64,000 bases of DNA from Cystobasidiomycetes sp. EMM_F5 (GCA_051047955.1 JBPGPT010000038.1:1-64000), one strand, 5' to 3'; positions 12,798 to 57,308 are shown, numbered from the stretch's first letter. Numbers and translations are program-made. Notes: generated by a model from the sequence alone, not told the origin.

Positions 12798-14215
12798 TCA
12801 GACTCCGTTTGTGTAGGCAGTACTGCCAACGGCAGCATCAAACTTGAGTACTTTGTCCAAGCCTGTTAAGCACATCAGACACATGCATGCCGTAGTGAAA
12901 CATGCCAGGAGCTCACCGACCAGATTGAACATGTCTCGAGGACTGAGTATGCTCTCTGTTGCCAACGGTGGTTGGTTAAGACCAGTCTGCCTGGTGTACG
13001 CGTATGCAGTCAGAGCGGCATTACAGACAGGACCGAGACCCGCTGTCGGCATGATCTGCCGACACTGACATATCAGCAACACCTTCGGCAATTGTGAAGA
13101 ATCACGCATACAGCCAGCTTCGCTCCCATTCGCTCACAGTCTGACGTGGACCATAGCGGAGTACTGCCTCCGGCGACAAGGTTTAGGAGAACGGGCGTTG
13201 GTGCCAGAGCGGCAATTGCCTTGACTGCTTCTGCTTCGGAAGTCACGCCTTCGAGAAACGCTACGTCGGCTCCAGCTTGTACAGCAGCGTATAGGCGGCT
13301 TATAGCCGTGTCGATGCCGTGACTTTGATCCAATTAGCATAATTTGATGCACTGCGTCCGCCGCAAGATAAGGCTCACCTTTGCAAAGCGTCAGACCGAG
13401 CGATAATAACCTGGAAAAGAGGCAATCGATTAGTTCGGAATGCGAACTGCAACCGCGGCCTTGCGCGACTCACCATATCGCTACCACCGCCGATTGTGCT
13501 TCTGGCATACACGGCAGCTTTGATACGGCGTACAAATTCATCGACAGTAACGATCTCCTTTCCGAGCAAGTGGCCGCAGCGCTTGTTGGTGACTTGATCC
13601 TCGATGTGCAGTCCCGCAACCCCTGCACGATGCTAAACAGATATGCTTTTATTGGCGTGACTCCCCTGGCAATGCAGTGTACCGAGACTGCTTACATATC
13701 TGTGAACAGTGCGTTCGATCTGCGAGGTTGAGCCAAAGCCGGTATCGGCGTCACAAATCAACGGGGGACATCCCGGGAGATTCGCGATCACTGTTGCAGC
13801 TTCTACCTGCAGTGTGGGTCAGTCGTAAAGTAAATATGTGTTGTTTCACGAGTGTCTCGACACACAAAATCGTCCATTGAAGCAAAAGCCAAGTCAGGTA
13901 GGCCAAGTCGGCTAGCGGTTACTGCTGCGCCACTCATGTCTGTACACAGCAGCATAATTAGTAATGGCCGCCGGCAGCCTGACGCCTGCGCCTCACATAG
14001 GCATTCAAAACCCGTCCGGATAGCGGCTGTATCAATAGGATCAGATAGACGGAAGATTTCGGTTTCATAGGCGACGCACCATGAGCGGTGATCCCATCGT
14101 AGACTCCAGGGGCAACGACTATTCCGTCTCTGTCTAGCAAACGTCTCAATCGCGTGGACTGAGGTACCCAAGCACTCTTATGGCCATTCGACAGCCCATT
14201 CCCGTTGATGGCCAT
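12798..14215 (-). CDS. Isocitrate lyase/PEP-mutase superfamily C-C lyase (2,3-dimethylmalate lyase / oxaloacetate hydrolase-like / PrpB-like)
   Basis: [79 protein letters not shown]. Confidence 0.93.
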
Positions 14216-14328
14216 TCCTGTGGTTTGACGTAGGATGAAGGAGGATGCGATGTGGAAGCAGATCAATACGAGTCCGGATCACAAGTAGTCTCATCTTCAG
14301 CTGTTTGCGCCGGCTGACGGAGATGGAC

Positions 14329-14386
14329 TGGAAATCCGTAACGCTCCGGGCCGCACGACCGGAAATCCATATATTCGGAGCTCCGA
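14329..14386. promoter_or_regulatory. Three CGGA-N2-TCCG-like sites upstream of the lyase gene
   Basis: TCGGAGCTCCGA (14375-14386, perfect palindrome) plus one-mismatch copies TGGAAATCCG (14329-14338) and CGGAAATCCA (14360-14369). Confidence 0.6.
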
Positions 14387-14783
14387 TGAGGTCGTAGTCT
14401 GCTCACAGCGGCTGGACGAGTATAACATGAAGAGCGACAAAGCGATGAAGAGCGCCCGTACGGTCACCTTCACCTGTGTACGGTCGTCGATGTTGTCGGA
14501 CCTTGGGCAATCTCCACTTTATGCGAAACTCATCAACTTGAATGGCAAAGTACGCGTGCAATAGGTTAACATTGAGCAGAAGACTGTAGCCTTACTGGAG
14601 CAACAAGGCTGAACCTGATTCCTGTCTTACCGCAACCATAAGTTACTGATGGAATGGCAATGGACATATTGTACATATACACAATTTGTCGAAAACATGT
14701 GGACGAGCTAGTAACCATCCCAACAGACCTTTTGAAGTACTCCACGTATCTCCACCGCGCTCGATACACTTTGTGCGAGTCCG

Positions 14784-16833
14784 TCAAATTGAATATCTGA
14801 ACGACAAATTCTGCTTGTCCGTAAGATCCCGAAATGCACGGTCCACAAGTGCGACCTCGCCCAATGCATCGCGACGCTTGTTCTCGCGCCATGCGGTATA
14901 GATATAGGCTATAGTGATCAAAATCGATCCGATGGCGCAAATCGTGATTGCGATGAAGCCGGTTGTCTACATTGACTTTTCAGCAAACATCGTTTTCAAA
15001 TCGACACTACTTACGTATTTGGGAGCCTCGGTAGCGAGGAAGAACTTAGGTCCTGCCGCGTTTGCTGCATTGGTGCAGATAACAAGCCACGCGGCGCATA
15101 TCGTTTTCTTCGTATGACCAGCCACCTTCGTCGAGATTAACGTTAGCGGACCCTACGTACGATTCGGGATGACTCACATTAGCTGTTGCAAGTCCAAAAT
15201 TCACCGAAACCGCGCCAAGGAACGCGGACTATTGAGGGATGCGCCCTTAGCATACTTCGCCGTCACGAACTGCATTCTCCGTACCATCAAGTAAATCCCA
15301 GCGAAAAGGCCTTGCTCATTGGTGGAGGGAAGAACCCATAGGAGTATGGCTCCCAAGAGGACGAGCGATTGACAGCCCAAGGAAAGAAGGCCCAAGCAGT
15401 TTCGAAAACGTAGACTGACACCCAGAACAATAAGAAGGATGACGATAAGCATCATACCCGTGGGTATGCTCAGCACCATAGCCCTGAGTGTTTCAACCGC
15501 AAGCTGGCGTCAGCCAATGCGGGACGTGCGGATGGACACCATACAGACTCGCCTGTATGCTGATGTTTTGAGCAATTGTTTGAACAGAATCTGGGAGAAC
15601 GCTGAGCTCTGTGAAGTCAGTTGCATCGAGTCAGTCGTTGTCTCTTGTACATTTGGCGCTGGGGCACACACCAAGCTGTTTGCAGGAGTAATGGCGAATT
15701 GCATCAAGCCAACGGCAATGACACGGAAGTCAGTGATAGCCTCCCACACCTATCAAGAAAATGACTTCAGCTTGTACAGTTCTGTATAGGGTGGACAGCC
15801 CGTACCTGCTCTTTCTTGAAGTGTCTGTTCTCGATGCCGGACTGGTTGATCCGGAGACGCTCTACCGCCAGATATCGCTGCCTGGGTGTGAGCATCCATG
15901 CTGTAACGGGACTATCTGGCAAGAAGAAGAAGAGAAGGACACCAAACACCATAGTGACCACGCCCCAACAGTAAAACATATTTCTCCAGGGTGCAATCGC
16001 GCCTTGCAAGTGAAGCAAGCCATAATTCACAGCGACTGTTATGGGAATGCTACCTCCGGCTGATTGCAAGAAAGGAGACTCAAGTTAGCATAAACGGCTT
16101 CGGCACAGTCTTGACAATTTGGCTTACCACCCATCCACCAGATACTGTGTCGTGGCACTTGTTCGTGCTGTGAGGCCTCGTCGGTATGACAGCATGCTCA
16201 AGTCGGCACATTTGCTCACCTTAGTGTACCACGCGCCGATGAGTAGAATGAAGCAAGGCTGCACGCCAGCCTCGCATAAACCCAAAATAGTTCGTTGTAC
16301 CATCGTAGTCGGGTATGAAGTGCACCATGCGGTGCTCATGCAGGCAAGTCCCCACAGAAACACGTAAATGGAGCACACTCTGCCCGTGCGAAATCTTTGC
16401 GCAAGGAAAGCTCCGATGGGGGCGCCGCAGACAAAGCCGACGTAGTAGATCGTGGTAGCATTCGAATACCGACCAGTGTTGAGTTGGCCATTCTCGGTGT
16501 AGAAGAGGTCGAGATCCCTGCATCATCGTTGTCAGGGCGTGTCTATGTAAGACTGCACGTCACTACGAAAACTTACGAAGATGCACCAAAGTTGATGGCA
16601 GTTGACAAGAGGTTCTTATCGGTATAATTCAAGCCATACGTAATAACCATGAGTGGCATGAGGACGAAGTCTATCTTTCGGACAAGCTTCTTGAGTTCTT
16701 GCGGGGTTGCGGGAGGTTCATCGCGGGCAGCGGCCAGTACCTGTGCTCCCGCATCCTGGAAGGTTTCTTGCTGTCCTTCAGCGTCGACTTTAGGGTTGTT
16801 GATGAATGACTCTTCGCGCTTTTCTTCTGACAT
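14784..16833 (-). CDS. MFS transporter, Dal5/allantoate permease-like family
   Basis: KKLVRKIDFVLMPLMVITYGLNYTDK, RTILGLCEAGVQP..GAWYTK, FFLPDSPVTAWML..AVERLRINQSG, AGHTKK, C-terminus DLTDKQNLSFRYSI*. Confidence 0.92.
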
Positions 16834-17537: not shown

Positions 17538-19288
17538 ATGTCGTCCGTCACACCAGACCTGCCAGTAGCTGGTGGTAACCGGGATGGCGCTGTCTCGGAG
17601 CATGCATCAATAGCACCCCTTCGCAAGGCGACAAAGGACATGACCAAGGGTGCGTACCCTGTGTGGTCACGTCACATCGCGGACAGTTGCTGAAACTATC
17701 GTCTGTGGCATGACAGCTGAACGGCGAGCCTTGCAAGTAAATGCAACTAGCAACGCCCTACTCTGTGTGAACAATAGCTGACAGACGCTCACACAGGAGC
17801 AACAACGAGAACACAATGCCAAAGAACGAGCGGCTAGGGAATCTGGCGGATCCGATGCCAAAAGAAGCGACAAGGTCAAAGCCAAAGCTAAAGACAAGGA
17901 TATTGTTGCCGAGAAGCGGAAAGCGGCAGTACCTGCGCCTGTCAAGTCTCAAAGCAAATCGCTCCCCGCTTTCGCTCTGCCGCAGCCAGGCGATCTGGGG
18001 TCGAATTCTTCAGCATCCGTCATGAGTCTTTTCCTACATTTAGACGCCCCGAAACCAACAAGATCCCTAAGTACGAAAGCGCAATCTGAGATGGTTCATC
18101 CCTGCATACAGCGCCTAGCTCTTCAGTATGCCGACTTTAAGATTGTCGGTGCCAACGCCAGATGTTTGGCCATGCTGGAGGCCTTCAAAATCGTAAGAAG
18201 ATATATCGAAACTTGCCCACTTGTCGAGGTACACTGATCCGTGTTGTAATTTCAGCTTATATCGACATACATAGTCCCGCCTGGGAAGTCCTTGTCACGG
18301 CATTTACCTACGTATCTATCGCCTCAGATCGTCCACTTAGTCAAGGCCCGCGCGCCGCTAGCGGTCAGCATGGGCAACGCTATTCGTTATCTGAAATGGG
18401 AGATATCGCAGATACCTCCAGAAATGCCAGACGATGAGGCGCGAGAAGTCCTCTGTGAACGCATCAACCACTTTATACGCGACCGCATTCTCCTGGCTGG
18501 CCAAGTAATTGAGGAAAACGCCATCACGAAGATCAACAACGGGGACGTCGTCATGACATTTGCCAGGTTAGTAGTAGTTTTATGGCTTCCTACATTGCCT
18601 TGCTGACACGGCAATTGTCGACAGATCTTCCCTGGTCGAAGGCGTCCTGCTTGCCGCGAAACGTACAGGCAAAGCATTTTCTGTGGTCATTGTCGATTCC
18701 CGACCAATGCACGAAGGTAAGCCATGCAGCGCAAAAGTCACGTCTGGACTTACTTGGAATGTTAGGGCGGAAGATGCTCAAGTCTCTGTTGGCCAATGGA
18801 ATATCCTGCTCGTATATACTACTACCAGCTATCGGCGTAGTGCTTCCCACTGTGTCGTTGACAATACTCGGAACGCACGCTATGCTGTCCAATGGAGCCA
18901 TGTTTTCTCGCGCAGGAACCGCGATGGTCGCCATGATGTCCAAAGGGGCCGGTATTCCGGTCATCTGTTGCTGCGAAACTTACAAGTTCAGCGACCGCAT
19001 CATGCTTGATAGCATAGTGGGTAATGAAAGAGGTAAAGCAGGCAAAGAAATACAATCGATGCTACTTATCTGACTGTCGTAAATACGAACTGCGCAGGCT
19101 CCACGGCGGACATCTTGGATGGCGATAACAAGGATGTTGACAATGCACATCTCGGAGTCCTCAACTTTCTATACGACGTCTCACGTCCCGAAGACGTTAC
19201 GGCAGTAGTCACAGAGACTGCCATCATACCTGTGCAATCCGTTCCATTCGTCCTGAGGGAGCATAAGCCCATCAGCTTGGGCGGCTGA
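17538..19288 (+). CDS. GCD2: Translation initiation factor eIF2B delta subunit
   Basis: MTKAERRALQE, SLFLHLD, VHPCIQRLALQYADFKIVGANARCLAML, SMGNAIRYLK, VIVDSRPMHEG, LGTHAMLSNGAMFSRAGTAMVAM, CCETYKFSDR, LYDV. Confidence 0.95.
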
Positions 19289-20118
19289 CAGTGTATCAAG
19301 TTCCTTCGCGTACGGCTGTGTGCCAGGGCAAACGGCATATGGAGAAGATTGTCTTAGCATATGGGGCCACACGCCTCGCGCATATCGTTCTCTGCAGTCA
19401 GTCAAGTCACATACGGGTACAGTCTGCAAATGGTCGCTCATCGAATAGCTGGGACAAGCGTGACAGTGCATGGAGCAGTCGTTGCAGCCATAGTTTCGAT
19501 TTGGGGTGGTAGGTGGTGCCCCTTGGCCCTGGCACCTGTTGATCAGCGCGACTCTGCCACGACACTGCCGTAATGCAGCGCAACGTCCTCGCCAAAATCA
19601 TTAGGCCATAGCTCTTGGTAAGCTTAAGCAGCACATGCACACCGGGGGGTCGCTTCATCAAGCGTTTGCAACCCATGTGTGGTGGCTGCGATGCTCACGA
19701 AGACGCAGTGCAAAAAAGGCAATAGCTGCGTAGTAGGATAGAGAGACGGAAATGCGGTAGAAACGGTATCGTTGCTATATCGTTGTGCTTGCCTTCAACC
19801 GAAATCTTCACAATCGCTTCAGCTCCCTTAAGCACTCTGACGGCTATAGAATGGCTTCGGTAATCGGACTGCCAAGTTGGGCGGACTATCGTACTCCATC
19901 TCTAACGGTAAGTATTACCATCCAGCAGATCATCTACGGATTGCGTCAGTGAGATTGTTGAGGTATCGCTGGCGCCGTTAGCTGAAAGGATCAAATGGGT
20001 CTTGACAGACGTTACAGCGTTTCAGACCGCAGATACTGTCCGCGGAATGCTTGCAGAATTGGAATCGTCTTTCGTATTGCAATCAGAGTGGCTATGCCTG
20101 AATACTACTGTCATGGAA

Positions 20119-21021
20119 TCAGACGGGTGTCATCGCATCCTTTCCAATTGCCCAGTCAATGCCTCCCTTGATATGCTTGAGAAAGGTAGGATCCTGCCAG
20201 AGGACAGTAGCGTGCCCAAGGCTACTGTACCACACTCGCCCGGTGCCGGCCAAAGGTCCCTCTCGCTGAGCCTCTCTGAACCAAGCGATGGGAAATGGAT
20301 GACCACCCTGCCTGTCCTTCTGTATATTCTTAAGTGGATCATCGAAAGATGCAGGATCAACAGTGACCAAGAGCTGCGAGTGCAAATTATCTGAGGTGTT
20401 AGAGGACTGTAAAGCCAGGCATGATGAGCTTTGCACCACATACAGAAACTCCTGTCTGCCGTGGATCACTCTGGAAGAAGTAGACCTCCTCATGCAGACG
20501 CCACGATGGTGGCAGACAGACAGTCGAGGGATGAGCGTGCTGGTGTATTGTGAAAGTAGCAGGTTGAAATTTGGAGTGGCGATCAAGTATAGCACCAAAC
20601 GCCCGAGTATATGCCTCAACATCCCGAAGGGCACTTGTAGCCGAGTGTATGCCGATAAGTGCTCCACCACTGAGGATGAACCGGGACAGATTGGACTTTT
20701 GTGTCTTATTGTCAAGAACGTCTCCGCTCGGTGACAGGAATATCAGCGCCTTGAAACGAGACAACAATTCGTAGTCGTCAAAGACCGTTGGGTCTTCGAT
20801 ATATTCGCTTTCGTTGTATCCGAAGTCGCGAATTGCAGATACAGCAGCCGCGGTAGACTCGTGTCGATAGAGCTATGTTAATGTGGGCGATGGGCGGGTT
20901 ATTGACAAGGAGGTCAGCCAGGTACGGAAACAGAGAATTGCTCAGACAATGATCTGACAAGTCTTCCCACCATAGTTCGACTAAAGAGCAAGAAAGGCTT
21001 GACAGTATTCAGGTTGGACAT
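20119..21021 (-). CDS. ThuA-like (trehalose utilisation; class I glutamine amidotransferase-like fold) protein
   Basis: LLFSRTM/LYRHES, FLSPSGDVL, GGALIGIHSA, HPST..LP..W...EEVYFFQSDPR, PIAWFR, GRVWYSSLGH..W.DP.FLKHI.GGIDW. An alternative in-frame ATG lies at 21063. Confidence 0.87.
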
Positions 21022-21274
21022 GTTTCGACGTGGGAGCTCGAAGCCTTGGTCTACAATTCCCATCCGTTCGCAAGTCTGTACAGAAGTGCGTAAGGTAAAG
21101 CGACTTCGGCGAGCACATACGAGGCTTCCGTTCACAATTGATGAGGTTCATGTAGGATAGTGTCGTCACGGCTTTTAAATGCCGATCTCTTGGGCGGCCC
21201 TCAACTTGGAATATCACGGGTTTGTCAACGTCCTCTGCTCACCGCTCGCACCATAGTGCATGTACTCCGTCATT

Positions 21275-24107
21275 ATGGACTACGGATCCGAGGAATGGTC
21301 AGTGACACGTTGGCGATAGGACAGGCTTTGCGGGCTGGGGTGGCGTTCGTTTCCTGTGCGGATCCGAACAAAGCAGACAACAACCAGCCTATGAGCTAGC
21401 AACAGCAGTTTGAGTAGTTCGGAAGTCACTGATCATTCACAAAACAGGGCTTCGACTTCGTCTTCCATATCTAATCCTGTGTTCGAACCGGCTGGCCAAA
21501 GTCCCGCTCGTCGACTCGCCAGTGGTGTGAGGAAGCTGAAGCCCCTGAAGCTAGGATCTTGTACTGGTGATTTGAGGCAACACTCGCTAACGCACGCACT
21601 GCTCAAAGCTGAGAAACATCGTCATTACCGCAATGCAGCTTGTCGTAAAGCGAAGGTGAAGTGTGACAGAGGAGGTAGAAGGCCTTGATTTATGGCTGTA
21701 GCGACTGACTACTAATGATGAGCAACACGGTCCGTCAGGTGACAACGCCCGGAGCCAAGCACCAACTACGAGATGTGGCAGATGTGTCAAGGTGAATGAC
21801 GATTGCATATACGAAGTGCACAAGACTGGCTACAAACATCCACCACTGTATGTGTCACCATCACTGCGCGCATCGTACGCAGCTGACAGTGAAGATGTTG
21901 TCTGTTGCCCACTTTCTCCGTCTCAGTCACCGCGTGATAGTGACAGAGACGGACCGTATGGCTGTCTCGCAACCCTTAGACGCCAGTGCAAGAGACTCCA
22001 GCGTTATTCCAGGCCGACACAATGACCCTCTTGCGGATGATCTCGCTAGGCATGCCTCTGCCGTGCCAGCACACGCCACTTTTCCGACGCTCGCCATAGG
22101 TACTGGTACCAAATTTTCGGACGATTTATTCGAAAGACCAGTAGTCCCGAATGCAGCGTCTACAAAGTTGTTCAAAGTCAAGCCGAAAAGGGATTGCTTG
22201 CCGGCGGAAGATCCCATTAGCAAGGGAATCTTGACTGAGGATCAAGCAGTCAATTACTTCAATTTGTAAGCCGAATATCATCGGGCATCCTTCGCCGCAG
22301 GCTCGTCTGACTTGTGTGTATATATCAGCTATCTGCTGCATCTGCATCCATGGAGCCCCGTTTTGAACACACGGCTGCATACGTTTCAATACGTTCGTCA
22401 ACATTCGACTTTCCTGCTGTGCGTGGTCTGCCTTCAGAGCGCAGCCTATCAAGCGAGCGATAATGTATGGAGAACACTCGCATCACACACAAAGAAAGTA
22501 TGCGGTACCATCTACTCCGAGGGATACCATTCTCTCGAGATAACCGCAGCCTTTGCTCTCTATGCTTCGCGACTGTCTTATGGAGAACCACATGAAATTG
22601 ACCAATCTTGGATACATCTTGGTACAGCTCTTCGCATGGCTGTAGAGCTGGGTCTGGACGAAATTAGCACGCTGGCTTCAGCTTATCCGATGACGCCTCA
22701 TAGAGCAGCACGGCAGGACTGGATAGAACGTCGGGCTGCGGAAAAATTATGGCTGAATCTGTATATACTAGACAGATCGTGCGTGCGAGATATAGAAGGC
22801 TATATCGACGATGGCATTGGAATGCCTTGTGACGTGGCTAACGATTTTGTCGCATCAGGATGAGTGGACAAATGGGCCGGCCGACAATGCTGGATGTCTC
22901 ATCGCAGGTGCTGCAACATGTCGAGAGCTGGTAGATGATCTACGAAGCTTATGATGCGCAACGTCTTACCTCTGACCTTTCACCGTCAGGATGGCTTCTC
23001 CTGGCACCGAGCAAGCCGAGCGGCTTACCGCTTCGCAAGCGCTCTTGCGGAGAGTTTTGGTGAGATTGTATCGCCGGTAGCGCCGGCCATAGCACGCCGC
23101 CTGAGCTTGTCACGCGACAGGAACGATCACACAACGCCAGTATGTCATCAGATCCACATCTGGAGCCTACAATCACATTGTGTCAATGGTATGATAAATG
23201 GTATCTGCAAAGCAGTAGGCCATAACATAATGCTCAATTTATTCGCATGCTGACAAGTCTTTTGCCGTAGATTCGTCATCAAGATGTAACTATCACCATG
23301 TCCGTATTCTTGCGCTAATGAGGGATACTAGCAGTGCCTCTGAGACAGAGAAGCGGCACGAAGCGCGACAAGTAGTACAGATCTGGCTGCATGATATCGC
23401 ATCGTCCCACAAGGTCGAGCATGCCACGACTTTGGCTTTGGTAGCAATGTCGCATGCCATAGTCGTTTTATGCCAAGTACGACTTACACACTTTTATCAA
23501 ACAATGAATCGTGATGATTGACGAATGAGTCCCTGCAGGCTGTGTTGCGGCTGGACCCAGGAGTAGTCACAGCCGAAGGCAACGAAGACCGGTCACTGGC
23601 CGGTCAACTGGTCGATGAGCTCAGTCTATCTGCAGAGCAGTGTACGCAGGGTACTGGCACGCTACGCTTCCATGCAGCATATCTGAAGCTGTGTCTTCAT
23701 TGGTTCGATCGGAAGAAGCTACACCACAACAGGTCGCAAGCGAGCCAGCACGTCAACCACGGTAAGCCTACTATTTTATTCAAAAGGATGTCTCATTCGG
23801 ATACTAACAGGTTCTTCTAGTCCTTGCTCAGCCTCCGCGACAGCATGCTCTTCATAATGAAGATCTGCGAGGCCCCCAGGATTCAATTCAAACAGGGCAA
23901 CTGTCTCTAATACAAAACGCTCTTTTTCCGGGCTGGACCGAGACTATGCCATCTCAGGATGATTACGCACTGCCCAATGACGATGTATGGACGGGTCAGA
24001 GTCTCCACGCTGACCTAGATGATCCAGTATTGGCCAGCTGGCTAGCGCAACTCACAGAAGACAGCTATTCCATCGGGCACATTGCCATGGACGTCGGCGA
24101 AAGATAG
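21275..24107 (+). CDS. Zn(II)2Cys6 transcription factor
   Basis: Spliced cluster SCTACRKAKVKCDR..RCGRCVKVNDDCIY; DPISKGILTEDQAVNYFN; HLHPWSPVL; WIHLGTALRMAVELGL; EKLWLNLYILDR. Start and end are estimated. Confidence 0.85.
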
Positions 24108-24380
24108 CTCTGTAAAAGCTGTTATTATGACATTTGATTGCACAATCACGAATGCATATTTCCGTGCAAAGTGCTGACGACGATCTGGTCTGCTACGTGC
24201 ATACATAGCAACAAGATAATACTTTGCAGTGCCGAACAACAGGTCTGCTGTATCGCCATATTTCACTCCACACTGACCATGTCAAATATAGATAACCAAA
24301 TTTGCATAACGTTTACTCTCTCTGCATATGGTCCATTGTGTTGCTTCCCCATACAGTGACAAACCCTGCTATTCGCATAG

Positions 24381-26911
24381 CTAAACCCGCTCGATGTGGT
24401 CGTCTTCATTCTCTGCCTTCGCGGCAAAGTCGGGTTCAAGACCGGCGCTCGGCTCGCCCTCCTTCGCCGTTGCAATGCTGGCGGTCAGACCCTGTGTTTG
24501 ATAGTCTGCGAAATCAGGTTCAGCATGACGCTCCCACTCTGAAGGTAGTGCTTGGCGTGATGCTCACTGGCAAAGTCTCTAGCAGCCAGCTTCTGCTCGA
24601 ACATCTCGTCGAGATCCTCGAAAGAACGGTTGCGCGTCTCGGGCTATGTCAATCAATGAAGACTAAACGTTTGGTCGCGAACTATCAAAGGGAAACTTAC
24701 CAAACAAAAATAAATCCACGTTGCAGCAATCAGAAGAGAGCCGCCCCAGATGAATCCGTACTACACGGTTAGTGCGTCAGTACGCCAAGCAGAGTCCGGA
24801 GCATGGTGTAGCCATCTACCTTGGCACCCCAGTTAAGATTGCCTGCATTACCATTGATGAAGTACGGAGCCGTAAATGACTGCGAGGGAGAGCGGTCCTC
24901 AGTTGCAACCAAATCCTACAGGCAAGCTAACCGAGTCACATACGATGAGCCATTGACTCAGATCGCCAAATATGAAGGCCAGAGCAAATGTCTTGGACCG
25001 TAGTCTGTTGCTGGACATTTCTGCCCCTACGGTCCACGACACTGGGGCCATACTGTATGTAAAGTTTGCGTTAGTGTTGCAAAGGACAAGCGACAAGATG
25101 TTGAAGCAGACGTACAAGCCGTAATAGGCGACCGTGTAAAGCGATATCATTGCCACGAGAACTTTGCCAGTTGAGAGCGATGTTGCGTCGGCCGTATACA
25201 CAGCCGCAAGAGTAAACATGCACACGGAAGCTGCAGAGAAAGAAGAGAGCAATAGAGGTCGACGACCAATGTATCGTGTGAGGATCAGTCCGAGAATTCC
25301 TCCAATGCTCCCGCACACTCCTTTAGAGACGAGGGTGGCAATAAATGGCGTGGGGTTCTTCAATCCGGTAACCTGGAAGAAGTCTATGGGTTGAGTCAGC
25401 GTCAGCTTGTCAGAGTGGAGCCTCAAACGAAACCCAGATTCACATGTAGAATAGCCGCTCAAAAACGCATTCTGGAACGTTGAAGTCAGCATTGCACACG
25501 AAACAGGGTTTGACGAAAACAAGCCTACACCTGTCGCTCCGGGAAGCATGATGCAACCAATAGCCAGAAGTGTTCGCCGCAAATTTGTCCCGCGGAAAAG
25601 GTCAACATATGATGCTCCAGCAGCCAGCTGTCTCTCATGCTCAACGCCAGTCACCATCGCTTCTAGCTCCTCCTCGACGTATTGGGCTTGAGGGCCAGTA
25701 CCTCTAAGGCGTATGAGAGCATTGCGTGCCTTGTCGTGCTTACCAGCCACGGTGAGCCATCGAGGGCTGGACAATCGTCAGCTCCTCATGCTTCCGCGAA
25801 AGTAATATACGCGCGTCACAGACCTCTCGGGGATGAACCAGGTCACGAGAAACAAACCTGCGCCGGCGTTAAAATCATGATTCGAAGGAGAGCCAGAGAT
25901 GCAAACCATCACTCACCCGCCGGTATTATGAAGCACACTGACAGCTGTACTTGATAATCCTGCTTTGAAGTACTACTGGCGTATGCATTGCTGACGAACG
26001 CGCCCACTAGCACTCCGAAGCCAGTAAAGGTTTGAAATAACTGGCTCATCGAACTCCGCTGCATCGCAGGCATCCTTCAGCCGGACACATGACATGCTGA
26101 AGAGCAACCAAGGGCAGCTCACCAGATGTGGAGGAGCTATCTCGGCCGAGTACACGATTGCTGCAAGTCAAGGCATGATCGTCAGTAATGCGGAATGGCA
26201 TGGTGTAAGTCACAAAATTAGTATAGTTGGAGGAAGGGCATCAGTTCAACATACCGTTCATGTAATTGAGCACATTCTGTGACGGCAGGGAGACAGCACG
26301 TTTGCCTGAGTAAGCTATACTATCGTCGTTGTCAATGCATAGGGATGGTACGCACGGATCCGCCAATAATAGTACGGCCAGCATAAATAGCAGCTCTCGA
26401 AGTGCCGAAGACTTGTAGGAGTAACGCAAGCACTCCGAGGTAAGACGAAAGTCTTACTAATTCCAACCGTCCAAACCTTTTCGACAGTACGGCGAAGAGA
26501 ACAGCAATGATAATTTGGCCAACGTAACCCAGAGAAGCGATGAGTTGTTGGAAGGTGCGATTAATTACATAGGTCCCTGTGCTAGTCTGGTCTCCGAAAA
26601 GCTTCAAGCTAACGCGACGGTAACATTACTCTCAGTCTGGGTCTGGAAAACGCGAAGCGGAGCAAGCGGCAGCAGCTTACAACCCGGATTGAGCCTGGAA
26701 ACCGGCAATGATAGTATTGTCGAAACCGAACTCTATGATATGGAAGGCCTGTATCAATTGTGACGAATTGCTGTATTATAAAAGTAGAGCGCTCACGGAA
26801 AGGTCCTGCAGCAATCATCAAAGCGATCAAGTACGCTTTGCGATTCTGCCATAGGGTAGTCTCATAGTAGGCCTGTGGCAGAAGTGTCGTGCCTGCATGC
26901 GATGCGTGCAT
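24381..26911 (-). CDS. MFS sugar porter (maltose/alpha-glucoside permease-like)
   Basis: LSKRFGR, YSAEIAPPHL(RG), IPESPRWL, SYVDLFRGTNLRRT, YIGRRPLLL, VGAEMSSNRLRSKT, PETRNRSFEDLDEMF. Confidence 0.92.
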
Positions 26912-27452
26912 ATTTATTCGGTTTGATGTAAGAAGTTGTCGATGTCGTCTTGTGCTATCTGACTGCGGATGTGTAAGGAGGTGTAGAAACGCAACAGAAG
27001 ACGGATCAAACGACAAGCTTTAGAAGACAACGAGCGGGGTTGGGTGTGTCTCGCGATTGTGCGAGGTCCAGAAGTGAAGGCCGGACGGGGTAAACCATGG
27101 GGTAACGTGGCATGAGCGCGAAGAGCGAGTGGTTATCATGACACCCAAGCTCGCCGTAAATGCCGTGCTGTGAGGCTTCGTCTCCGGCTGAGCCCCGTCG
27201 AAGCTTGAGTCGGGACTCGGACAGCGTGCTGCCATCCCGTGGGTGAACGGCATTCACGATGTACAGCGCTGTACATGAACCCCGACCACAATCATGTGCG
27301 ACATTCTATGCCTGACTGGCTGTCTAAGCAGTCCGAATCCGAGTGCACGTAGCTACGGTAACATCGATGCACGACGCAAAACCCCACAGAATCGCATCTC
27401 TTGACCAGCAGCATACTTTTGCTCAAGTTGGCTGTTATCATCCCACCGTGGC

Positions 27453-28654
27453 ATGCAGCTGGTTGGCTTCGTCAAGAAGGAAATAGCGGTCGACTCCGCC
27501 GGGACAACGCTCAGCTACTTCGACGCAGAAGGTCCGAGCGAACGGGTCCTAGTCTGTCTACATGGAATTCTTTATCGCAGCCGTAAGTTGTTTTCGGATG
27601 GAAGGCCCTTTGCACTTTACATCGCCCTGTATAAGCTGACAGCTCCGGTGCGCTGCTATTTGTGCAGCTATCTTTGAGAGACTCCTGCCTTTCGCCAAGC
27701 TGGCAGGAGTGAGATTGGTGCTGCTTGACAGAAGAGGTTATGGCGATTCTACCGACGTACCCCAAGCCGAAGTGGAATGTTCTTTCGACGGATCCGCAAC
27801 GGCTGCGGACGTGCTGGCGTTCCAAGGGAGACGTGCAAACGAGGTTGCGGAGTTTCTTCTCCGATTCGCAGCGCTAGAAGGTATCAACTCTAGGCGCCTA
27901 ACTCTGCTGAGTTGGTCTGCTGGCGCACGCATCTTGGTTAGTTTGCTAGCTTCGCAGGATCTTCAGAAGCTAGACAGTATTCTTGCTTCCCTGATTCTTT
28001 GGGGTTAGTCACGGCTGCATCCCGACTCTCACTTTGCATCGCAAGATCTAACTACCGTTGATGATTGCTCCCTCCTATCGTCCAGAAATGCCGTACAATG
28101 CTTTAGGCGTCAGTGCGCCTGCACAGGCATGGAATCCCTTGCATGATCTGTCCATTCCACAAGATGAGCGATTCCAAAAATTTGCGGGCTGGTGTTCAGG
28201 GTACTTCCGACATCCTGGCAGCGACGCCAGTGATGCAAGCTCTCTGGAATATCGTCGATACGAGCCAGAACCGCAGCCCACCATATTTACGATGAGCAAA
28301 GTGGACCTCAGTCGCGTCCAGGATACTCGGGCATCGCGATCATACGAGATTCGCATGTCAAACAGAGCGAAAGCAACAGGGTCCAGTTTAGTGGAGACTG
28401 AAAAAGCCTTCTTGCTGACAGCCACTCACAAGCCGTACTTTGAAAATGTCAAAATCACGGTTCTGTGGGCTCAGCAGACGGAGTGGGAAGTGCATTGGGC
28501 TGCTGAAGCGTTACGGGCGCTGCTGATTCATGCCAAAGCGCAGCACAACAGCCAATGCCGAGCAGTGCAGTTCGTAAAGCTGGCTAGTGGTAACCACTTC
28601 CTTCATTGGGCAGATCCAGGCAGCTGTATGGCTGCATTTAAGGCTGCCATGTAA
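27453..28654 (+). CDS. Alpha/beta-hydrolase fold protein
   Basis: LVCLHG, LLDRRGYGDST, nucleophile elbow LSWSAG, C-terminal GNHFLHWADP; two introns. Confidence 0.85.
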
Positions 28655-29133
28655 TGATGATTCGACCGGCCTGCATAGTCTGGAGCAAGGCTGGCCGTAG
28701 AATGATACAGGCACCATGTGTATCATTAGCACATCAATGAATACACACACGCAGTGTTTCTCTGAGGATCCTGTGCTCGTAGGGCATATTTACACAACAT
28801 CAGTGTGTTATTGCGCTGCGGATTAGATGCCCGACAGTCCCCACAAGAATTCGAACGCAAAGACCGGAAAGTGATGAGAGTATAGGTTGGCTATCGATCA
28901 TTTCACAAGCTCCGAGCATATGAGTCTCTTCTGTGCAGCAGCCCGCTTGAGCTAGACAAGTATGTCGCCACCTGTATCGGCACTCAAGTGCCGGTCGCCT
29001 AGAGGCCGGTCGGTCTAGACTTGCGATGTTCGAGCGCCGGATCCGCAGGCTATTGAGAACCGAGTGAATGCTTCACTGCGGTTGTGGTTTGATCACGACG
29101 TCCCTTGTCCCTCCGCTCCTAACTACCCTAATC

Positions 29134-30250
29134 ATGGCTCCTGCATTGAGCACAGAACGCGACCATAGTGGAAACAACTTATCAGCTAATGGTAGTGCGG
29201 GGCAGCACGGTTTATTCTACTGCGGCGGCACTGCAGTAATCACAGGCGGAGATGGCTGCATCGGGTTAGCCATCGTAGAAGGTTTGGCTCGATCTGGCAC
29301 AGACATCATAAGCTTACAACTCGATGCCAACACCCGAGTCAGCGAAATAACCGCCAGACATGGCCGTAGCTGCGCAATCTATATCTGCGATCAGCGCGAT
29401 CCCAAAGCTGTTGATGCTGCCTTTCCTAAGATTCTAGCGGATGGACATGAACCAACTATTTTCGTCAGCTGGTGAGCCAAGTAGATCTCCTCTCCTGCGA
29501 TGCTGACTTTAGCTTGATGTATCGCGGAGTGCTGGACTGCAACGACGAGGATCCATCCAGGACTGCCCTCGCGCGTGGCTCCTAGACTTACTGGAAGTGA
29601 ACACTATCAGCCAATTCATTCTAGCTAGGGATTTTGCAAGTTACCGTACCTCAGTTTGGAACGCGCTTAATAAAGCACAGCAAGAAGACCAATTGCACCA
29701 CTCACGTCACAGTAACGGCAAACTCATCTTCATCGCATCTATGCAGGCTTACACTGGCGGTAGCAACGTTACAGGCTAGTAAGTGGAATAGTGCCCTTAT
29801 GCACACGACGAGCCTTGACAGATTGCGTCTGCCAACAGCGCGACGTCAAAAGCGGCCGTACTGGGCACAGTCCGCGCCTTTTCCAACGAGTTTGCACCCT
29901 TCAATATCCAGACCAATGCCATAGCCCCTGGGTTAGTGGATACCGACTTCGTTGCCGCACTCAAATCTGCCCCTGGATTCAATGAAAAGGCTTTAGCGCG
30001 CATTCCAGCGAAGCGATGGGGAACACCTGGTGAGCGTGACAGCAAGTTTGTGTGCTGTTGCGCGCAACGTCTGGTGCAGAGGAGAAACTGAGACTCGCAT
30101 ACAGCTGACTATATGGGAGCAGCCGTCTTCTTGGCGAGCACCGCGAGCAACTACAGTAGGTCATTGAGCAGCGGGTCTTTCCGCACAGCTGACAATCCTG
30201 AAGTGTCCGGCCAATCTATCGTAATTGACGGTGGACGTCTAGCTTTCTAG
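29134..30250 (+). CDS. Short-chain dehydrogenase/reductase, KduD (2-keto-3-deoxygluconate dehydrogenase)/gluconate 5-dehydrogenase-like; possibly decaying
   Basis: AVITGGDGCIG, VSCAG, GKLIFIASM, spliced GYATSKAA, NAIAPG.VDTD, ARIPAKRWGTP, GAAVFLAS.ASNYMSGQSIVIDGG. Confidence 0.85.
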
Positions 30251-30457
30251 GCACTGTGCTTGCGTGACAGGGGGCCGGTCGAACCCCTTGATTGATCTTC
30301 AGTAGTGGGCAATTACAGGTTATTGTTTTAGCATACATGGCGCCTCCTGAGGTCGCGGATACTGTAAGCCACATGCTCGAAAGGTTTAGCGTCGCCTTCC
30401 GTATCACAGCGCGAGTAGCTATGCCTCGCCAATACCACTGTCGTAGTGTTTGAACAC

Positions 30458-31020
30458 CGGGAAGTTGCTCAAGTCCCCGTCCGGCCGATGGAAAATCCGG
30501 CTCGTTCATACAACTACAGGCTATCGGCGTGGTGCTTCCCACTGTGTCGCTGCGATACTGTGGACGCACGCCATGCTGTCCCACGGAGCTATATTTACAG
30601 GGATTGCCATGGTCGCTATGGTGTCCCAAGGTGCCGATGTTCCGGTCATCTGCTGCTGCAAACTTTACAATTTCAGCGACTGCGTCATGCTTGACAGCAT
30701 ACTGGCAGCGGAAAGAGGTAAAGAAGGCCAGGAATTACGATTGATGCGATTCATCTGACTAATGCCTAACGAACTGTAAAGGCTCATTAAAGCGGACATC
30801 TTGAATGGCGAATGGCGATGAACAGAATGTCGAATGCACATATCGGAGTCCTCAGTCTGTATGGCGTGTCAGGTTCGAAGGACGTTATAATTACGGCATT
30901 AGTCACAGAGACAGCCATTATGCCCGAGCAATCCATTCCGTTCATTCTGATGGGGCACAACACATCAAACGTGGGCGGTTCACAGCGTTGATGTCATCAC
31001 GCACGGCTCTATGAGCCGAG
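30458..31020 (+). pseudogene. Degenerate copy of the 3' part of eIF2B-delta (last two exons, intron and start of 3' UTR)
   Basis: Colinear with ~18768-19330 (e.g. GCTATCGGCGT.GTGCTTCCCACTGTGTCG, CCGGTCATCTG.TGCTGC, GAAAGAGGTAAAG, AGTCACAGAGAC), with 1-nt indels, a 6-nt deletion and the stop lost (TGA>TCA). Confidence 0.92.
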
Positions 31021-31111: not shown

Positions 31112-32981
31112 TCAAAGGGGTGGGGTAGCATGCGCTTGCAATAATCCGATGTGCGAGAAGGCGATTCCCGTTGCTAGCCAAATTCCTAGTTCCGGGTGCT
31201 CTGGGCTGCGCACCGGTTGGTATGTTGCGACTTTGACTATAGCATTACCAGCGTGATGCATCGCGACCTTCTCGGCCAGTGCTCGGATCGCAGATGCTCG
31301 ACCCATGATGCCAACCTCGCGTGTCAATTCAGCATACGCAGGATCGGGGAACGTCGCTAGTGTTTTTGTCGAGCACACAACACCCTTTTCCCAGATGGGA
31401 ACGCCGACTATACGCTGAGTAAGTAACAAGCACCGTTGTGAGGCAAGATGACCTACAGTCCGATTCGTCCGTAATATGTATTACATCTCCATTCTGGGTC
31501 GTAAGGCTTGCCACAGGTTGTCCGTTGCCTGCGAGACTGATCACAACCAACCGAGTGGTCTCGGCTCCATCACGACGCATTGTACGGCTTGCATCAGCAG
31601 AAGCTCCCGACGGCGCGTGTGTGAGTGCTGTGGGATCTGATTCTGGCTGGCGTCTGGGTCTGAAAGTATCACCTTGCCCGTTCGGGGTGTGATGCGGGCG
31701 GTTGGTAGTAGAGACTTCCGCCAGCGGAGATGAGGTGGTTTCGCGAGTTGCGTCAATGAGCTGCAGTAGCCGCATGTTGACACTCGCAGCCAGAACTGGA
31801 TTGCTGCTGTCGGCATCCGAGAGCATTTGTGTCTTCGATAATCTAGTGCAGTAACCAGGTTCTAACGTTGTGACAGGTATTGGTGATTCAGCGATTGCAG
31901 CTATGTCTGCACGTGGATGGGCAGCCTGGGTACGTTCGTGATGATTGCTAGCATCTACAATAGGTCTAACCTTAGCGCCTTCGGAGCGAGTTGCAGCTGC
32001 AGCTTTGGTGTGCTGTTCTCGGAGTGCCTTCAGCCGCTGTGTAAGGGCGATGAGCGAGTATGATCATGGACAGACCAAACATGTAACTAACCGCTGTATA
32101 GGCTTCTTCTTTTAATTTTTCGACAGTCAACTTGTCCTCCATAAACCTTTCCCGTAATGTAGAAGATGAAGATATGTCGTCAACGAGCGGAATCGGTTGC
32201 AGGACTCTATTAGTCTGATAGTCGGCAAGTCTCTGTGAATGTGCGTGAGATATCGGAGGCGGAGGCAGCCGGGCAGAGCACTATGAGCCTCGCTACTGTG
32301 TCTACGTAGGAGACTTACCTTTTCATATGCTTCCATTGCGGCTTTCCGGCGCTCTCTCTCGAACTTTTCGCTTTCAAGACGGATCAGACTGCGCTCTTTC
32401 GCACGTGCTGCGTTCTCTGCGGCCTGTTCAACCGCTGAAGCTTTAGACAACGCTGTACAATCTGGAAGGATCTTCACACCTTGACTTCGCGACGGAATTG
32501 CTCCTCTGCGCGCTTCTCCGCAAGGGTCAGGGCTTTCTCTCGCGCTACTTCCCTCTCCTGAACGAGCTTTTCCGCATGTGAGGCTATTTTTGCGTGTCTT
32601 TGCTCTTCTTTTGCAATTTTCTGACGCTTTTTTCTTTCTTCTTTGGCTGCCTTCCTAAGCTCGCCCTGTTCGAGCTTATCCTTCTTCTCTTGCTCACGCC
32701 GCTCCTTTTGAAGTTGCTTTTTGGCCTCAGTTGCAGCGCGCTCTGCATCCCGTACAGCATTGAGACGGTCCAGCTCTGCTTTACGTCGCTCAGAAATAAC
32801 AGTAAGGATTGCGTCACGCTTGTCGGACGGGAGGTCCTTGCTGAGAAAGGGTTTGGTCTGGATATGCAGATTGCGGCGGCTCCACCCGTCCAAACCTTGA
32901 AAGTTGTAATTGTTCATTCCGAATCGTTGTCAGTAGAAGCATATCATGCGATCATGGGTACACACCAGATTCGTTTGCCAT
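31112..32981 (-). CDS. Hypothetical protein with K/E/R-rich coiled coil
   Basis: Probable start MANESG|LDGWSRR joined across a GT-AG intron; long charged helical exons at 32474-32900 and 32127-32470. Exon structure is uncertain. Confidence 0.5.
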
Positions 32982-33264: not shown

Positions 33265-35033
33265 TCAGTCACTACCGCCACCCAATAGATCTCCAATACC
33301 ACTCCAGAATCCTCCGGAATCTGATGCTGCTTCGCCAGGGCTCCAAGGGTCATTCAACAGTCCGTCTTGACCGGCTTGATCGCCCCAGCCTGACCCATTG
33401 TCGTAAGAGGAGTCTCCGATACCTGGGGATTCTCCATATTCAGGCGAGGCGTAGGGTTCGTTAATTGTTGGAGAGGTATCGATATCTGCTGGTACCTGCC
33501 CGGTCGACGGAGGCACTTCGCTCGGCACGGTGCCTCCAGGCATCGGCATCCATAACATGGGCATTCCGATGCCGCCTCCGCCTTGCCGACTGAAATAGTC
33601 GATGTCTACCGTTATCGCCGTTGCCAGCAGAATTGCGCGTTGATCCAGGGTAAGTCCTCGAGTGTCTTCGTCAGGCACATGCACCATTTCTCGCGATGAT
33701 GATGAGACCTCTGCGCCCTTACTCTCCTTCCCGGCCTTACTAAGCTCCTCGTTGAGCCCAACACCTTTTTCCAACCGCTCTGTGATTTCAGCTTCAGCAA
33801 CATCCTTATCGAAACGAAGAACGTATTGGCCAGTATCTGTGAAAACCTCGCGGCCGAATCCCATGAAGTTACGATTAATAGATGCCAGCACTCGACCGCT
33901 CTCCGACTGGAGATAGAAATCCCATGCAAGAAGCCTCGCGTCAATGCTAGCGAATTGATCGTACGAATCCGTCCGGCCCTCAGTTGGGACTATAGCCAAG
34001 TTGTCCGATGTTGTCAGACCAGGTGACGACAGAAGTCGCTCTCGATGATACAACGAATACTTTCGTCTGTATGGGTGCCATACTTGTTGACATTCTCCGA
34101 TTTTGTTCTCAGGCGAAGCTTCCTCTGGACCTCGATACACACTGATGCGCGAGTTGATGACGGAAAACGGTCGCTCGACCCGCAGGACAACATTGCCCAC
34201 TAAGTCCAAAACTACGCAAGAGAAAGCTGCGGTCATATTCGGCAAAATTAGCATTGTCGGATTGATAACATGAGTTGGTAAGACCAACGTCGATGTCCGC
34301 GCATGACTTGACGACCTATGGCACGGCCGAAACCACCTTCTGACTCGGCTAGGTATCCCACATCCTCACCTTGAGGGTTGACGAGCCGGTATCGATTAGC
34401 CTAAAATGTCGAATGCTTAGCAATTGCCTGCTATTCCAACAATATCTCCTCACTTGCTCGTAGCCCAAGAGCACGTTCATCATCTCGATTTGTCGCACAA
34501 CAACCAGTGCTGGCTGGGAAAGCATTTCGGCTGCAGAATGCGTCACATCCAGTAAATCGCCGGGCAGAGACGGCGGAGGCTTCCCTTCTAGTGCTTCGAT
34601 ACCGTTGACTGGTACATACTGATCAATGCCACCGAAGAAGGACTGGCTTGCTGTAGCTGTTGAAGTAGGCGTCTTTGCGGAGTTGTTCGCTTCCGTGACA
34701 TCAAATCGAGACCGCTGACGAGAGAGGGCATGAACATGGTGTGGTGAAGCTGGTTGTGACAATGTTGGCGTTTGTGCAGGAACTGATGACTTCCCGATTA
34801 TACTGCTCGGTTTACGTAATTGCGTCGTTGATGGATCCCGGACGCGAGACAATCGACTTCCTGCACAGACGGCATGGTTAGCTCGGGATTGGTTTGGGCT
34901 GTTTACAAGTTCAGGGCTTACCGGGCCGTCTTTTATCAAAGGATCTGGAGGATGCATACTTTCTCACTTGAAATTGTTGCAATGACCGAGGAAGCGCAGT
35001 GGTCTGTCCATGGGTCGTTAGAAGGCGTCGCAT
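33265..35033 (-). CDS. AIM25: Mitochondrial phospholipid scramblase family protein
   Basis: LVVVRQIEMMNVLLGYEQ/ANRY, VERPFSVINS, IGECQQVWHPYRRKY, INRNFMGFGREVFTDTGQYVLRFD, LTLDQRAILLATAITVDIDYFSR; Arg-rich N-terminus. Confidence 0.92.
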
Positions 35034-50880: not shown

Positions 50881-51642
50881 ATGCAAATCTTTGTCCGTGA
50901 CATCGCAGGCAGTGTCTATGCTGTCGGTGAGTCAGTGCTCTCTGCATACCGTTTCAACGCAGTGCCCGTCCACCTAGTAGCCACATGCTGAGGATGTCCT
51001 TGTTACTCGTATACAGTCGCGGACGACATGTCAGAGCTGCAGTCTGCTATCATAGCCCGCTCTGGCCTCTCTTCGGATAGTCTGCGGATATCGCACCGTT
51101 CAAGGCAACTAAGCACATCATCCAACTCGCCCCTGCAAGAATTGGGAGTTTACAATAATGCAACAATAGACGTATCGTCAAGATTACGAGGTGGTGCGCC
51201 AAAGAAGCGATGTGCATTCGTGTTTGCAAAGCAGCAAGCGTCCTCGTCTGCCAGCACTACGGTAGTGGCGACATCAAGTGATGCCAGTACCTCTGCGACG
51301 GCGCCTACTCCTCAGCAGCTCGAAGGCTCCACGAGCACGTCAGCCGAGTCTTGTGGCAACGCATCTTCCACAGCTGCAGAATCCAGCGCATCCACTGCAA
51401 GTTCAGCAACCGTACTGCCTTCACCAGCCACACTCGAAGCCATACTAGAACGATGCTCATCTGCAGCACTCCGTATGGTCGGCGACTGTCCTCGCTGCAC
51501 AAAGTCATACTGCTCTACCCATCGTCTACCGGAAGACCACGCCTGCCCTGCTCTGGCTGGATGGCGCAAACAGGCTTTCGACGAGAACCGGGCAAAGTTG
51601 GAGAAGGAGGCAGTCATTACCAGCAAGATTAGCGCATTCTGA
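50881..51642 (+). CDS. Ubiquitin-like domain plus AN1-type zinc finger protein (ZFAND4/ANUBL1-like architecture)
   Basis: MQIFVRDIAG, intron, ...VSSRLRGG, then KKRC...C..AALRMVGDCPRC.KSYCSTHRLPEDHAC. Confidence 0.88.
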
Positions 51643-56341: not shown

Positions 56342-57211
56342 TCACAACAGACTACCTCTGACAACGTACACGCTGTCGGCATCATGAGTCTGAGACCCGA
56401 TACTCCGGGTAAGATCCAGCTTTGTGAAATTCACTGTTTCCGACGTGGCCGACTCGTCGCTAATGAGGCATAGGAACAACAGCTGCGACACGCTTTAACG
56501 AAATTCTGCAACGGCAAAGCGGAAAATGCCGTGACTTACATCATCAGACAATGCTGTTGACAAATTGTTAGTATTCTTGACCATCATTATAGCTGCAAAT
56601 AGGTCCAGAGCTTTCCCACACACTATGTCCTGCTCACTTTGGCCTCAGGTTATAGGTTATCATAGAGCAGGCATACAGACTCCTACCTGCTGCAACCAGA
56701 GATCCATGGACGTGGCAGAAGATACGTTTCGTACACACAAGTATCGACGCTCTTGGGGTGGTGCTTGCTTCTTTGGATCTGCCGGCTTTGCTCTTTGTTT
56801 CATCTTCATGACCAATAACTTTTTGTCGATAGGTTTCAAGGTAGATTGTTTTGCGCCCTTTCCAGAAGACTGAAATGCTTGGAGGTCCGGAAAGTTCTGA
56901 CGGAGTACGTCCAGCGCTGCCTGCTTCTTTTGCTGTCTTATGGAGGATGTAGCAGTGGACGTTGCTCGTCGGTTTGGATCAGGCAACAAGTCCTTCAAGC
57001 CCGCTGCCGGTATGAAGTCTGTATCATGAGAAGCAGTCGTCGCAACGGAACGTATTCCAGTACAATCGTGAGCTGCTGGCAATGCATCATCTGCATGTTC
57101 CTTGCAAAACGCTTTGGCGCACAACCCGCATTTATATGGGAGGAAGTCCAGCGCGCGGCATGTTGTACAATGACTTCCTACGTCCGCTGCATCTGGTTTG
57201 AGGACGTCCAT
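56342..57211 (-). CDS. AN1-type zinc finger protein (Cuz1/ZFAND1-like)
   Basis: VGSHCTTCRALDFLPYKCGLCAKAFCKEH..HDC; MKMKQRAKP..ERRYL. Confidence 0.85.
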
Positions 57212-57308
57212 ATCAGCATTGTTTATGTCGACGAAGATGGTGTGAGTTCAAGTGGCGCCGGTTCCCCTTTTGTCCAGACCCACAAACGAAATGCGGCCAG
57301 GAGTGAAG

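Follow-up and report, generated by a model that had tools for sequence, protein, structure and literature searches.

A decayed direct duplicate of the GCD2 3′ end brackets a five-gene island in Cystobasidiomycetes sp. EMM_F5: a possible insertion scar

How metabolic gene clusters reached their positions in fungal genomes is usually inferred from phylogeny, since the junctions rarely keep a readable trace. We describe a junction that keeps one, in a 64,000-nucleotide (nt) stretch of DNA from Cystobasidiomycetes sp. EMM_F5 (GCA_051047955.1 JBPGPT010000038.1:1-64000; hereafter the window), nuclear DNA from an intron-rich basidiomycete belonging to the Pucciniomycotina. The 3′ end of GCD2, the essential gene for the delta subunit of eIF2B (eIF2B-delta), occurs twice in direct orientation around an island of five genes, as a functional copy that completes GCD2 (copy A) and as a decayed copy at the far side of the island (copy B). 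Copy B is a dated and polarised pseudo-fragment that marks a former gene end. Insertion of the cluster is likely, and a foreign origin of either copy is not supported. In kind, the feature would be a repair-associated duplication marking a gene-cluster insertion.

A repeat search yielded three collinear direct-repeat blocks of 70, 163 and 98 nt, with 86, 80 and 76% identity and a spacing of 11,685 to 11,694 nt. Local alignment joined them into a single 549-bp repeat, with copy A at 18769..19317 (+; repeat alignment, BLASTN and tree) and copy B at 30460..31008 (+; alignment, BLASTN and translation). The copies are 75 to 80% identical overall (BLASTN, 75% over 543 nt, E = 1e-97). Sliding identity was 0.55 to 0.88 within the repeat and fell to background, at most 0.5, on both sides. 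The similarity is far beyond chance, since this is the sole repeat family of at least 40 nt in the whole window. The first-pass annotation of this DNA had reported that about 560 bp of the GCD2 3′ end recurs in decayed form and in the same orientation at 30458-31020, which was confirmed, with coordinates right to within about 12 nt.

GCD2 itself is intact (17539..19288, +), with its ATG at 17539, its stop codon at 19286-19288 and Pfam IF-2B matches on open reading frames (ORFs) at 18250-18603 and 18513-19070; its 5′ exons were modelled by eye only, and its named homologues are eIF2B-delta/GCD2 proteins. The repeat contains the last two coding exons, the intervening intron and a further 30 nt or so beyond the stop codon. 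Thus the start of the 3′ untranslated region (UTR), which had also been listed as part of the repeat, is present but short. All on the plus strand, the penultimate coding exon lies at 18766-19032 (sequence, Pfam IF-2B and translation check), the intron at 19033-19097 and the last exon at 19098-19288 (both by sequence and translation check). The next exon upstream, 18626-18716, is outside the duplication. Matches and mismatches between the copies numbered 210/45 in the first exon of the repeat, 49/13 in the intron and 150/30 in the last exon, counts for which the exon/intron border was set one base too far left, leaving the picture unchanged. The intron is thus kept in copy B, with 49 of 62 aligned bases identical. 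A DNA-level event, as proposed in the first-pass annotation, is borne out by the retained intron, and a processed retrocopy was rejected because the intron is retained and neither an A-run nor a poly(A) tract follows copy B. The left edge of the repeat (18766-18769 / 30460) lies at most about 3 nt from the 3′ splice site of the preceding 49-nt intron, and the copied block is almost exactly two coding exons plus their intron, a coincidence predicted by none of the models considered here.

Copy A completes an open GCD2 reading frame, and copy B carries indels of 1, 2 and 6 nt, among them frame-breaking ones, and no longer has a stop codon. Read in the frame of copy A, copy B is identical at 101 of 140 residues. 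Mismatches at the first, second and third codon positions amounted to 21/142, 19/147 and 35/146, and the Nei-Gojobori method gave a dN of 0.14 and a dS of 0.40 over 140 codons (ratio 0.35). In the protein tree the terminal branch of copy A has a length of 0 and that of copy B a length of 2.0 to 2.9; nearly all of the amino-acid change therefore occurred on the branch of copy B. Copy A is constrained, and copy B has been neutral from the start. From the synonymous divergence, the age of the event would correspond to roughly 0.15 to 0.2 neutral (synonymous) changes per site, counted for each copy. The changes from A to B comprise 17 A>G, 15 T>C, 14 C>T and 10 G>A, with 39 transversions. Repeat-induced point mutation, a process of Pezizomycotina, was rejected because this spectrum is symmetric.

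The lineage of the two copies was determined from GCD2 relatives. A search with the conserved exon gave 161 proteins at E ≤ 0.001 among 213 candidates, the closest being environmental proteins (81 to 82% identity), followed by Cystobasidium minutum (74%, the best named match) and Microbotryomycetes species (72 to 73%). In an IQ-TREE phylogeny of 47 rows, copies A and B formed a clade (ultrafast bootstrap, UFBoot, 99; SH-aLRT 89), sister to the nearest relatives, P0001 and P0002 (90/94). Placing copy B outside the group of A, P0001 and P0002 was not rejected by the approximately unbiased (AU) test (difference in log likelihood 2.89, p = 0.108). A direct residue count discriminates better. At 16 sites copy A differs from the residue common to three or more of the four near relatives; copy B has the residue of A at 12 of these and that of the relatives at 2, with one site showing another residue and one unreadable. 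Copy B also shares 5 of the 6 changes polarised to the line of A after the split from P0001/P0002. In a comparison with five relatives, 10 residues were unique to A, and copy B has 8 of them. The shared residues are spread over both exons. Since it carries these lineage-specific residues, copy B was copied from a gene already bearing the substitutions of its own lineage. At the level of sequence, both copies are thereby shown to belong to the same lineage, and a distant donor, rejected by both the tree and the shared derived residues, is not supported; a conspecific or sibling-species donor could still have supplied copy B. In the predicted proteins P0002 and P0279, the latter a GCD2 protein in the 90%-identity cluster of P0002, three in-frame inserts of about 15 to 16 residues fall at the positions of the last three GCD2 introns of the window, indicating that intron positions are conserved and that the introns of the relative are stop-free and multiples of three in length.

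The two copies exactly bracket the five accessory genes that had been placed between them, which by Pfam belong to the ThuA, Fungal_trans, Sugar_tr, Abhydrolase and adh_short families. From the left, a ThuA-like gene (class I glutamine-amidotransferase-like; 20119..20880, −) has at least one intron and approximate ends, with Pfam ThuA matches on two ORFs (E = 4e-27 and 2e-12). It is followed by a gene for a Zn2Cys6-type fungal transcription factor with many introns and approximate ends (21400..24770, +; Fungal_trans E = 8e-7 on 22270-22860, and a weak Zn_clus match, E = 0.04, at 21395-21685). Next come a sugar transporter gene of the major facilitator superfamily (MFS) whose 5′ end is approximate (24899..26900, −; Sugar_tr E = 5e-19 on 24902-25777, MFS_1/Sugar_tr on 26335-26625) and a weakly assigned alpha/beta-hydrolase-fold gene with approximate ends (27405..28651, +; Abhydrolase_6/_1 E = 1e-3, under the curated cut-offs). 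The last is a short-chain dehydrogenase/reductase (SDR) gene (29068..30250, +; adh_short/adh_short_C2 on 29068-29472 and 29819-30088) with a TAG stop codon at 30248-30250. Copy B starts 209 nt past that stop. The family names suggest a cluster for the catabolism of sugars or glycosides. At its left edge, 19318..20118, the island has about 800 nt in which 17 ORFs of at least 35 amino acids gave no Pfam match at or above the curated cut-off, and no gene relic was found at the island edges. The spacer between the convergent stop codons of GCD2 and the ThuA gene (19289-20118, about 830 nt) holds no recognisable gene and may contain UTRs or an unrecognised small gene.

In composition the island is native. 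Its genes are split by introns, as are their neighbours, its GC content at third codon positions is 0.51 (flanks, 0.54), and its tetranucleotide distance is within the range of the window. The codon-usage correlation was somewhat lower for the island, where the sample was smaller (0.60; 0.77 for one flank against the other). Pfam scans of 51 ORFs from 17.8 to 35 kb, 94 ORFs of the remaining window and the edge ORFs revealed no recombinase, DUF3435 captain, transposase or reverse transcriptase, and scans for tRNAs and Rfam families gave nothing in the island. No terminal inverted repeat was present at the island ends, the only inverted pair being internal (30 nt, 70% complementarity). No paralogues of the island genes were found elsewhere in the window, and no source copy was detected within it.

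Among the five island genes, phylogenetic placement was restricted to ThuA. Close relatives of ThuA are few: a word-index search gave 2 matches (63 to 65%) among 95 candidates. An exhaustive search returned 1565 matches at E ≤ 0.001, only 3 of them at E ≤ 1e-30, with a best representative at 51%. The nearest named relatives are from Atractiella (50%), Mixia osmundae (48%), Kwoniella (41%) and Rhizoctonia (40%). This pattern indicates that the ThuA gene is fungal and patchily distributed, which fits the description 'accessory' but not 'foreign'. The ESM Atlas listed bacterial clusters for ThuA; by the caveat of that resource such a listing does not indicate gene transfer, and it was contradicted by the HMMER search and the named kin. 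The suggestion in the first-pass annotation that one of the GCD2 copies could be of donor origin, taken to mean a foreign donor, is not supported, given the well-supported clade of A and B and the derived and A-unique residues that they share. Nor does the island point to a foreign source: its composition is native, the scans above gave no integrase, transposase or tRNA, and the nearest named kin of ThuA are Pucciniomycotina.

To the right of the repeat, copy B ends about 105 nt short of the stop codon of a convergent set of orphan ORFs, gene X (31112..32929, −), presumed to be the original convergent neighbour of GCD2. Gene X gave no Pfam family worth noting (E ≤ 1) and no match in the ESM Atlas or the Protein Data Bank (PDB), and it was rejected as a hidden recombinase because nothing of the kind appeared in these three resources. 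Beyond it lies a scramblase gene (33268..34963, −; Pfam Scramblase E = 4e-29), which served as a synteny marker. The GCD2 protein P0279, from the cluster of the closest relative in the tree, is encoded on a single Logan contig, 10,944 nt long; for P0283, among the best scramblase matches (56%), there is likewise just one Logan contig, also 10,944 nt long. Both are probably on one and the same contig. If so, no more than 8.9 kb can lie between their ORFs, which measure 1,044 and 990 nt. The corresponding distance in the window, from the GCD2 stop to the scramblase ORF, is 13,980 nt, with island plus copy B making up 11,691 nt of it; the full island therefore could not fit on that contig. The listed ThuA relatives include none on a contig of this length. 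The nearest relative thus probably holds the 'empty' arrangement, which favours insertion.

Synteny was also sought more widely. Metagenome assemblies provided 36 loci with GCD2 relatives (44 to 78% identity), about 15 of which extend at least 5 kb downstream. By tblastn with all window ORFs of at least 50 amino acids, 0 of the 36 shared any neighbour with the window and only GCD2 matched, the loci being too distant to inform either model. The tail of locus L001 past its GCD2 stop, compared with gene X and ThuA, gave nothing significant. Among named species, GCD2 and ThuA of Mixia lie on different contigs, about 1000 accession numbers apart. In named Microbotryomycetes, GCD2 and the scramblase gene are 33 to about 900 locus tags apart. 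In Rhodotorula kratochvilovae (33), R. pacifica (339) and sp. NB124-2 (376), the contigs that carry the two genes are equal in length, which suggests a loose, chromosome-level linkage older than the island. Cystobasidium minutum was absent among the scramblase matches. An empty site in relatives, which the first-pass annotation named as a check, is accordingly likely for the nearest relative, with the metagenome loci saying nothing on the matter.

We tentatively read the repeat as the scar of a single insertion event with target duplication, an account that we rate at somewhat less than an even chance. We infer that the five genes arrived in that same event and that break repair was the mechanism. 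In the ancestor, GCD2 (+) and gene X (−) would have been convergent neighbours, with a spacer of about 130 nt between their stop codons. An 11.1-kb segment with the five genes would then have landed about 30 nt past the GCD2 stop, and break repair would have duplicated the 549 bp to the left of the landing point. The most likely cause of the duplication is one of two processes, either staggered single-strand breaks followed by fill-in or replication template switching with re-entry 549 bp behind the point of exit. Template switching of the kinds known as microhomology-mediated break-induced replication (MMBIR) and fork stalling and template switching (FoSTeS) would likewise yield duplicated partial genes. 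The upstream copy would have stayed joined to GCD2 and under selection, and the downstream copy, without promoter and 5′ exons, would have decayed neutrally since the event. The observed structure is L-h-insert-h-R, with copy B adjoining gene X. Single insertion is favoured because one event suffices and because copy B sits where the end of GCD2 would lie without the island; it also fits the probable empty site and a timing after the split from the nearest relative. The lack of mobile-element machinery was counted in favour of a repair-associated insertion.

Several observations weigh against this reading. The island is native in composition and has no source copy in the window, and nothing positively marks it as a new arrival. 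The AU test (p = 0.108) does not reject a duplication predating the split from the nearest relative. A target duplication of 549 bp is long for an insertion, and the position of the left repeat edge about 3 nt from a 3′ splice site is left to chance. That P0279 and P0283 share a contig rests only on the equal size of 10,944 nt, and even a shared contig would leave room for some 6.6 kb at most of additional DNA between GCD2 and the scramblase gene. No synteny was readable at any of the 36 loci of relatives.

Insertion with duplication, integration of a circle and local copying all yield the same final structure. For local copying, the five genes would be residents, and a 549-bp copy of the GCD2 3′ end would have been pasted into the spacer between the SDR gene and gene X, by break repair or two template switches; the feature would then be an ordinary partial gene duplicate. 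This alternative is credible but doubtful. Template and copy are in cis, 11.7 kb apart and in the same orientation, and eukaryotic genomes commonly hold partial copies of genes close to the originals. It would also accommodate the native composition and intron-rich genes of the island, the ThuA kin in Pucciniomycotina, the missing mobile machinery and the AU test, which leaves the timing open. However, the copy must have landed by coincidence at the far boundary of a coherent set of regulator, transporter and enzymes, about 105 nt from gene X, at the very point where the end of GCD2 would lie without the island. The nearest relative, which probably has GCD2 and the scramblase gene within 10.9 kb, would moreover require a separate loss. 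A tandem duplication of the GCD2 3′ end with the five genes, followed by loss of the second gene set, a further route named in the first-pass annotation, agrees with the direct orientation and with a spacing equal to repeat plus island. It is the least economical account and a very improbable one, as the second deletion must match the ends of the second repeat copy and the second cluster, and no remnant of a second gene set is present downstream. We give hardly any credence to an artefact or other origin, be it misassembly, a retrocopy or a copy from a distant donor. Public runs yielded one weak match (X1, share 0.10) and no RNA run, and among their contigs (X1 and X3) none spans GCD2, the island or copy B: those of run X1 cover only about 14.0 to 16.8 kb plus a short low-identity piece near 18.36 to 18.40 kb, and run X3 gave a single short low-identity piece at 30704-30739. 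Nevertheless, copies that are only 80% alike do not confuse assemblers and would be neither collapsed nor created by them, the intron is kept with no poly(A), and copy B nests with copy A in the tree.

Bacterial islands and prophages integrate into the 3′ end of a tRNA, tmRNA or protein gene and regenerate it (Campbell model). The first-pass annotation had likened the present structure to such islands. The likeness extends to direct repeats of the 3′ end of a gene around accessory-type genes and to the intact target. It breaks down elsewhere: no integrase or site-specific recombinase was found in the Pfam scans, the repeat measures 549 bp instead of tens of bp, composition and phylogeny show no foreign contrast, and the setting is eukaryotic, with an intron inside the repeat. 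The main idea of the first-pass annotation corresponds to Campbell-type integration, in which a circle, either extrachromosomal circular DNA or DNA from the same or a sibling species, carried the five genes and a GCD2 3′ end and entered by one crossover, leaving hybrid repeats and a regenerated gene. We regard this as unlikely, even though it predicts the observed structure exactly, with the target gene intact, and the homology is limited to one sharply bounded block. It requires a donor locus with the cluster already beside GCD2, and this moves the question one step earlier. No recombinase or replication-origin-like feature turned up in the Pfam scans, origins not having been searched for as such. 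Copy B shares the lineage-specific residues of A in both exons, so that the donor could not be distant, and no mosaic step in identity is seen along the repeat. The more specific idea of an integrase-free fungal cluster that moves as a circle, uses the 3′ end of an essential gene as homology arm and re-enters the same or a sibling species by one crossover appears improbable. If it were true, the flanking repeats could pop the cluster out again, and the 'empty site' of the relative could be the state before or after.

A precedent for such circles comes from wine strains of Saccharomyces cerevisiae, in which a circular intermediate was proposed for region B, about 17 kb with five genes (PMC13447093). 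Region B resembles the island as a five-gene block with a regulator and transporters, and it occupies varying chromosomal sites. It is derived from a distant yeast and variable among strains, whereas both repeat copies here are of the host lineage, and the passages covered note no duplicated host-gene end at its borders. Starships are mobile elements with a tyrosine-recombinase captain, terminal inverted repeats and a target duplication of a few bp, and they span tens to hundreds of kb. Like them, the island holds several genes as a block of cargo within direct-repeat bounds; in contrast, it has no captain and no terminal inverted repeats, its duplication is 549 bp long and its size is 11 kb. 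Starship/Enterprise elements are giant cargo transposons of Pezizomycotina (PMC8092012).

The closest parallel to the single-insertion reading is provided by Drosophila inversions. Staggered breaks there left duplications whose median size is 321 bp, the extremes being 46 bp and 1.9 kb, and most of them decay (Ranz et al. 2007, PMC1885836). They share with the GCD2 repeat a unique sequence, often a partial gene, on both sides, decay by point changes and small indels, and the absence of a transposon; their size range encompasses the 549 bp found here. The Drosophila copies reported there are inverted and belong to inversions, whereas the present ones are direct and surround an apparent insertion. 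Differences also lie in the host, in the present case a basidiomycete yeast, and in the need for one copy to stay functional, the gene being essential. By the marks of staggered-break duplication, then, the repeat conforms: unique sequence is duplicated on both sides, its length falls within tens to 2000 bp and one copy is decaying. A keyword search of titles and abstracts found no description of a fungal cluster flanked by a duplicated 3′ end of a host gene, which does not show its absence from print. If the empty site is true, the locus would show at the level of single bases how a cluster was inserted without a transposon in a yeast of the Pucciniomycotina, and would provide an age for the event and a direct test of break-repair duplication versus circle integration.

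The genes flanking the region are ordinary housekeeping genes, among them those for HSP70, AMP deaminase, a mitochondrial L27 and KH proteins. Elsewhere in the window, ORFs with an AN1-type zinc finger are found at 50992-51639 (+) and 56663-57247 (−), separate and less than 6 kb apart. Upstream of GCD2, at 14026-16787 (−), the contigs of run X1 match the window at no less than 99%, leaving out eight stretches of 48 to 68 nt with CT..AC ends. As CT..AC is GT..AG on the minus strand, these contigs are spliced transcripts of an MFS-type gene. The run, labelled 'DNA?', is thus RNA-like, and the sizes of its introns agree with those of the modelled GCD2 introns of 49 and 65 nt.

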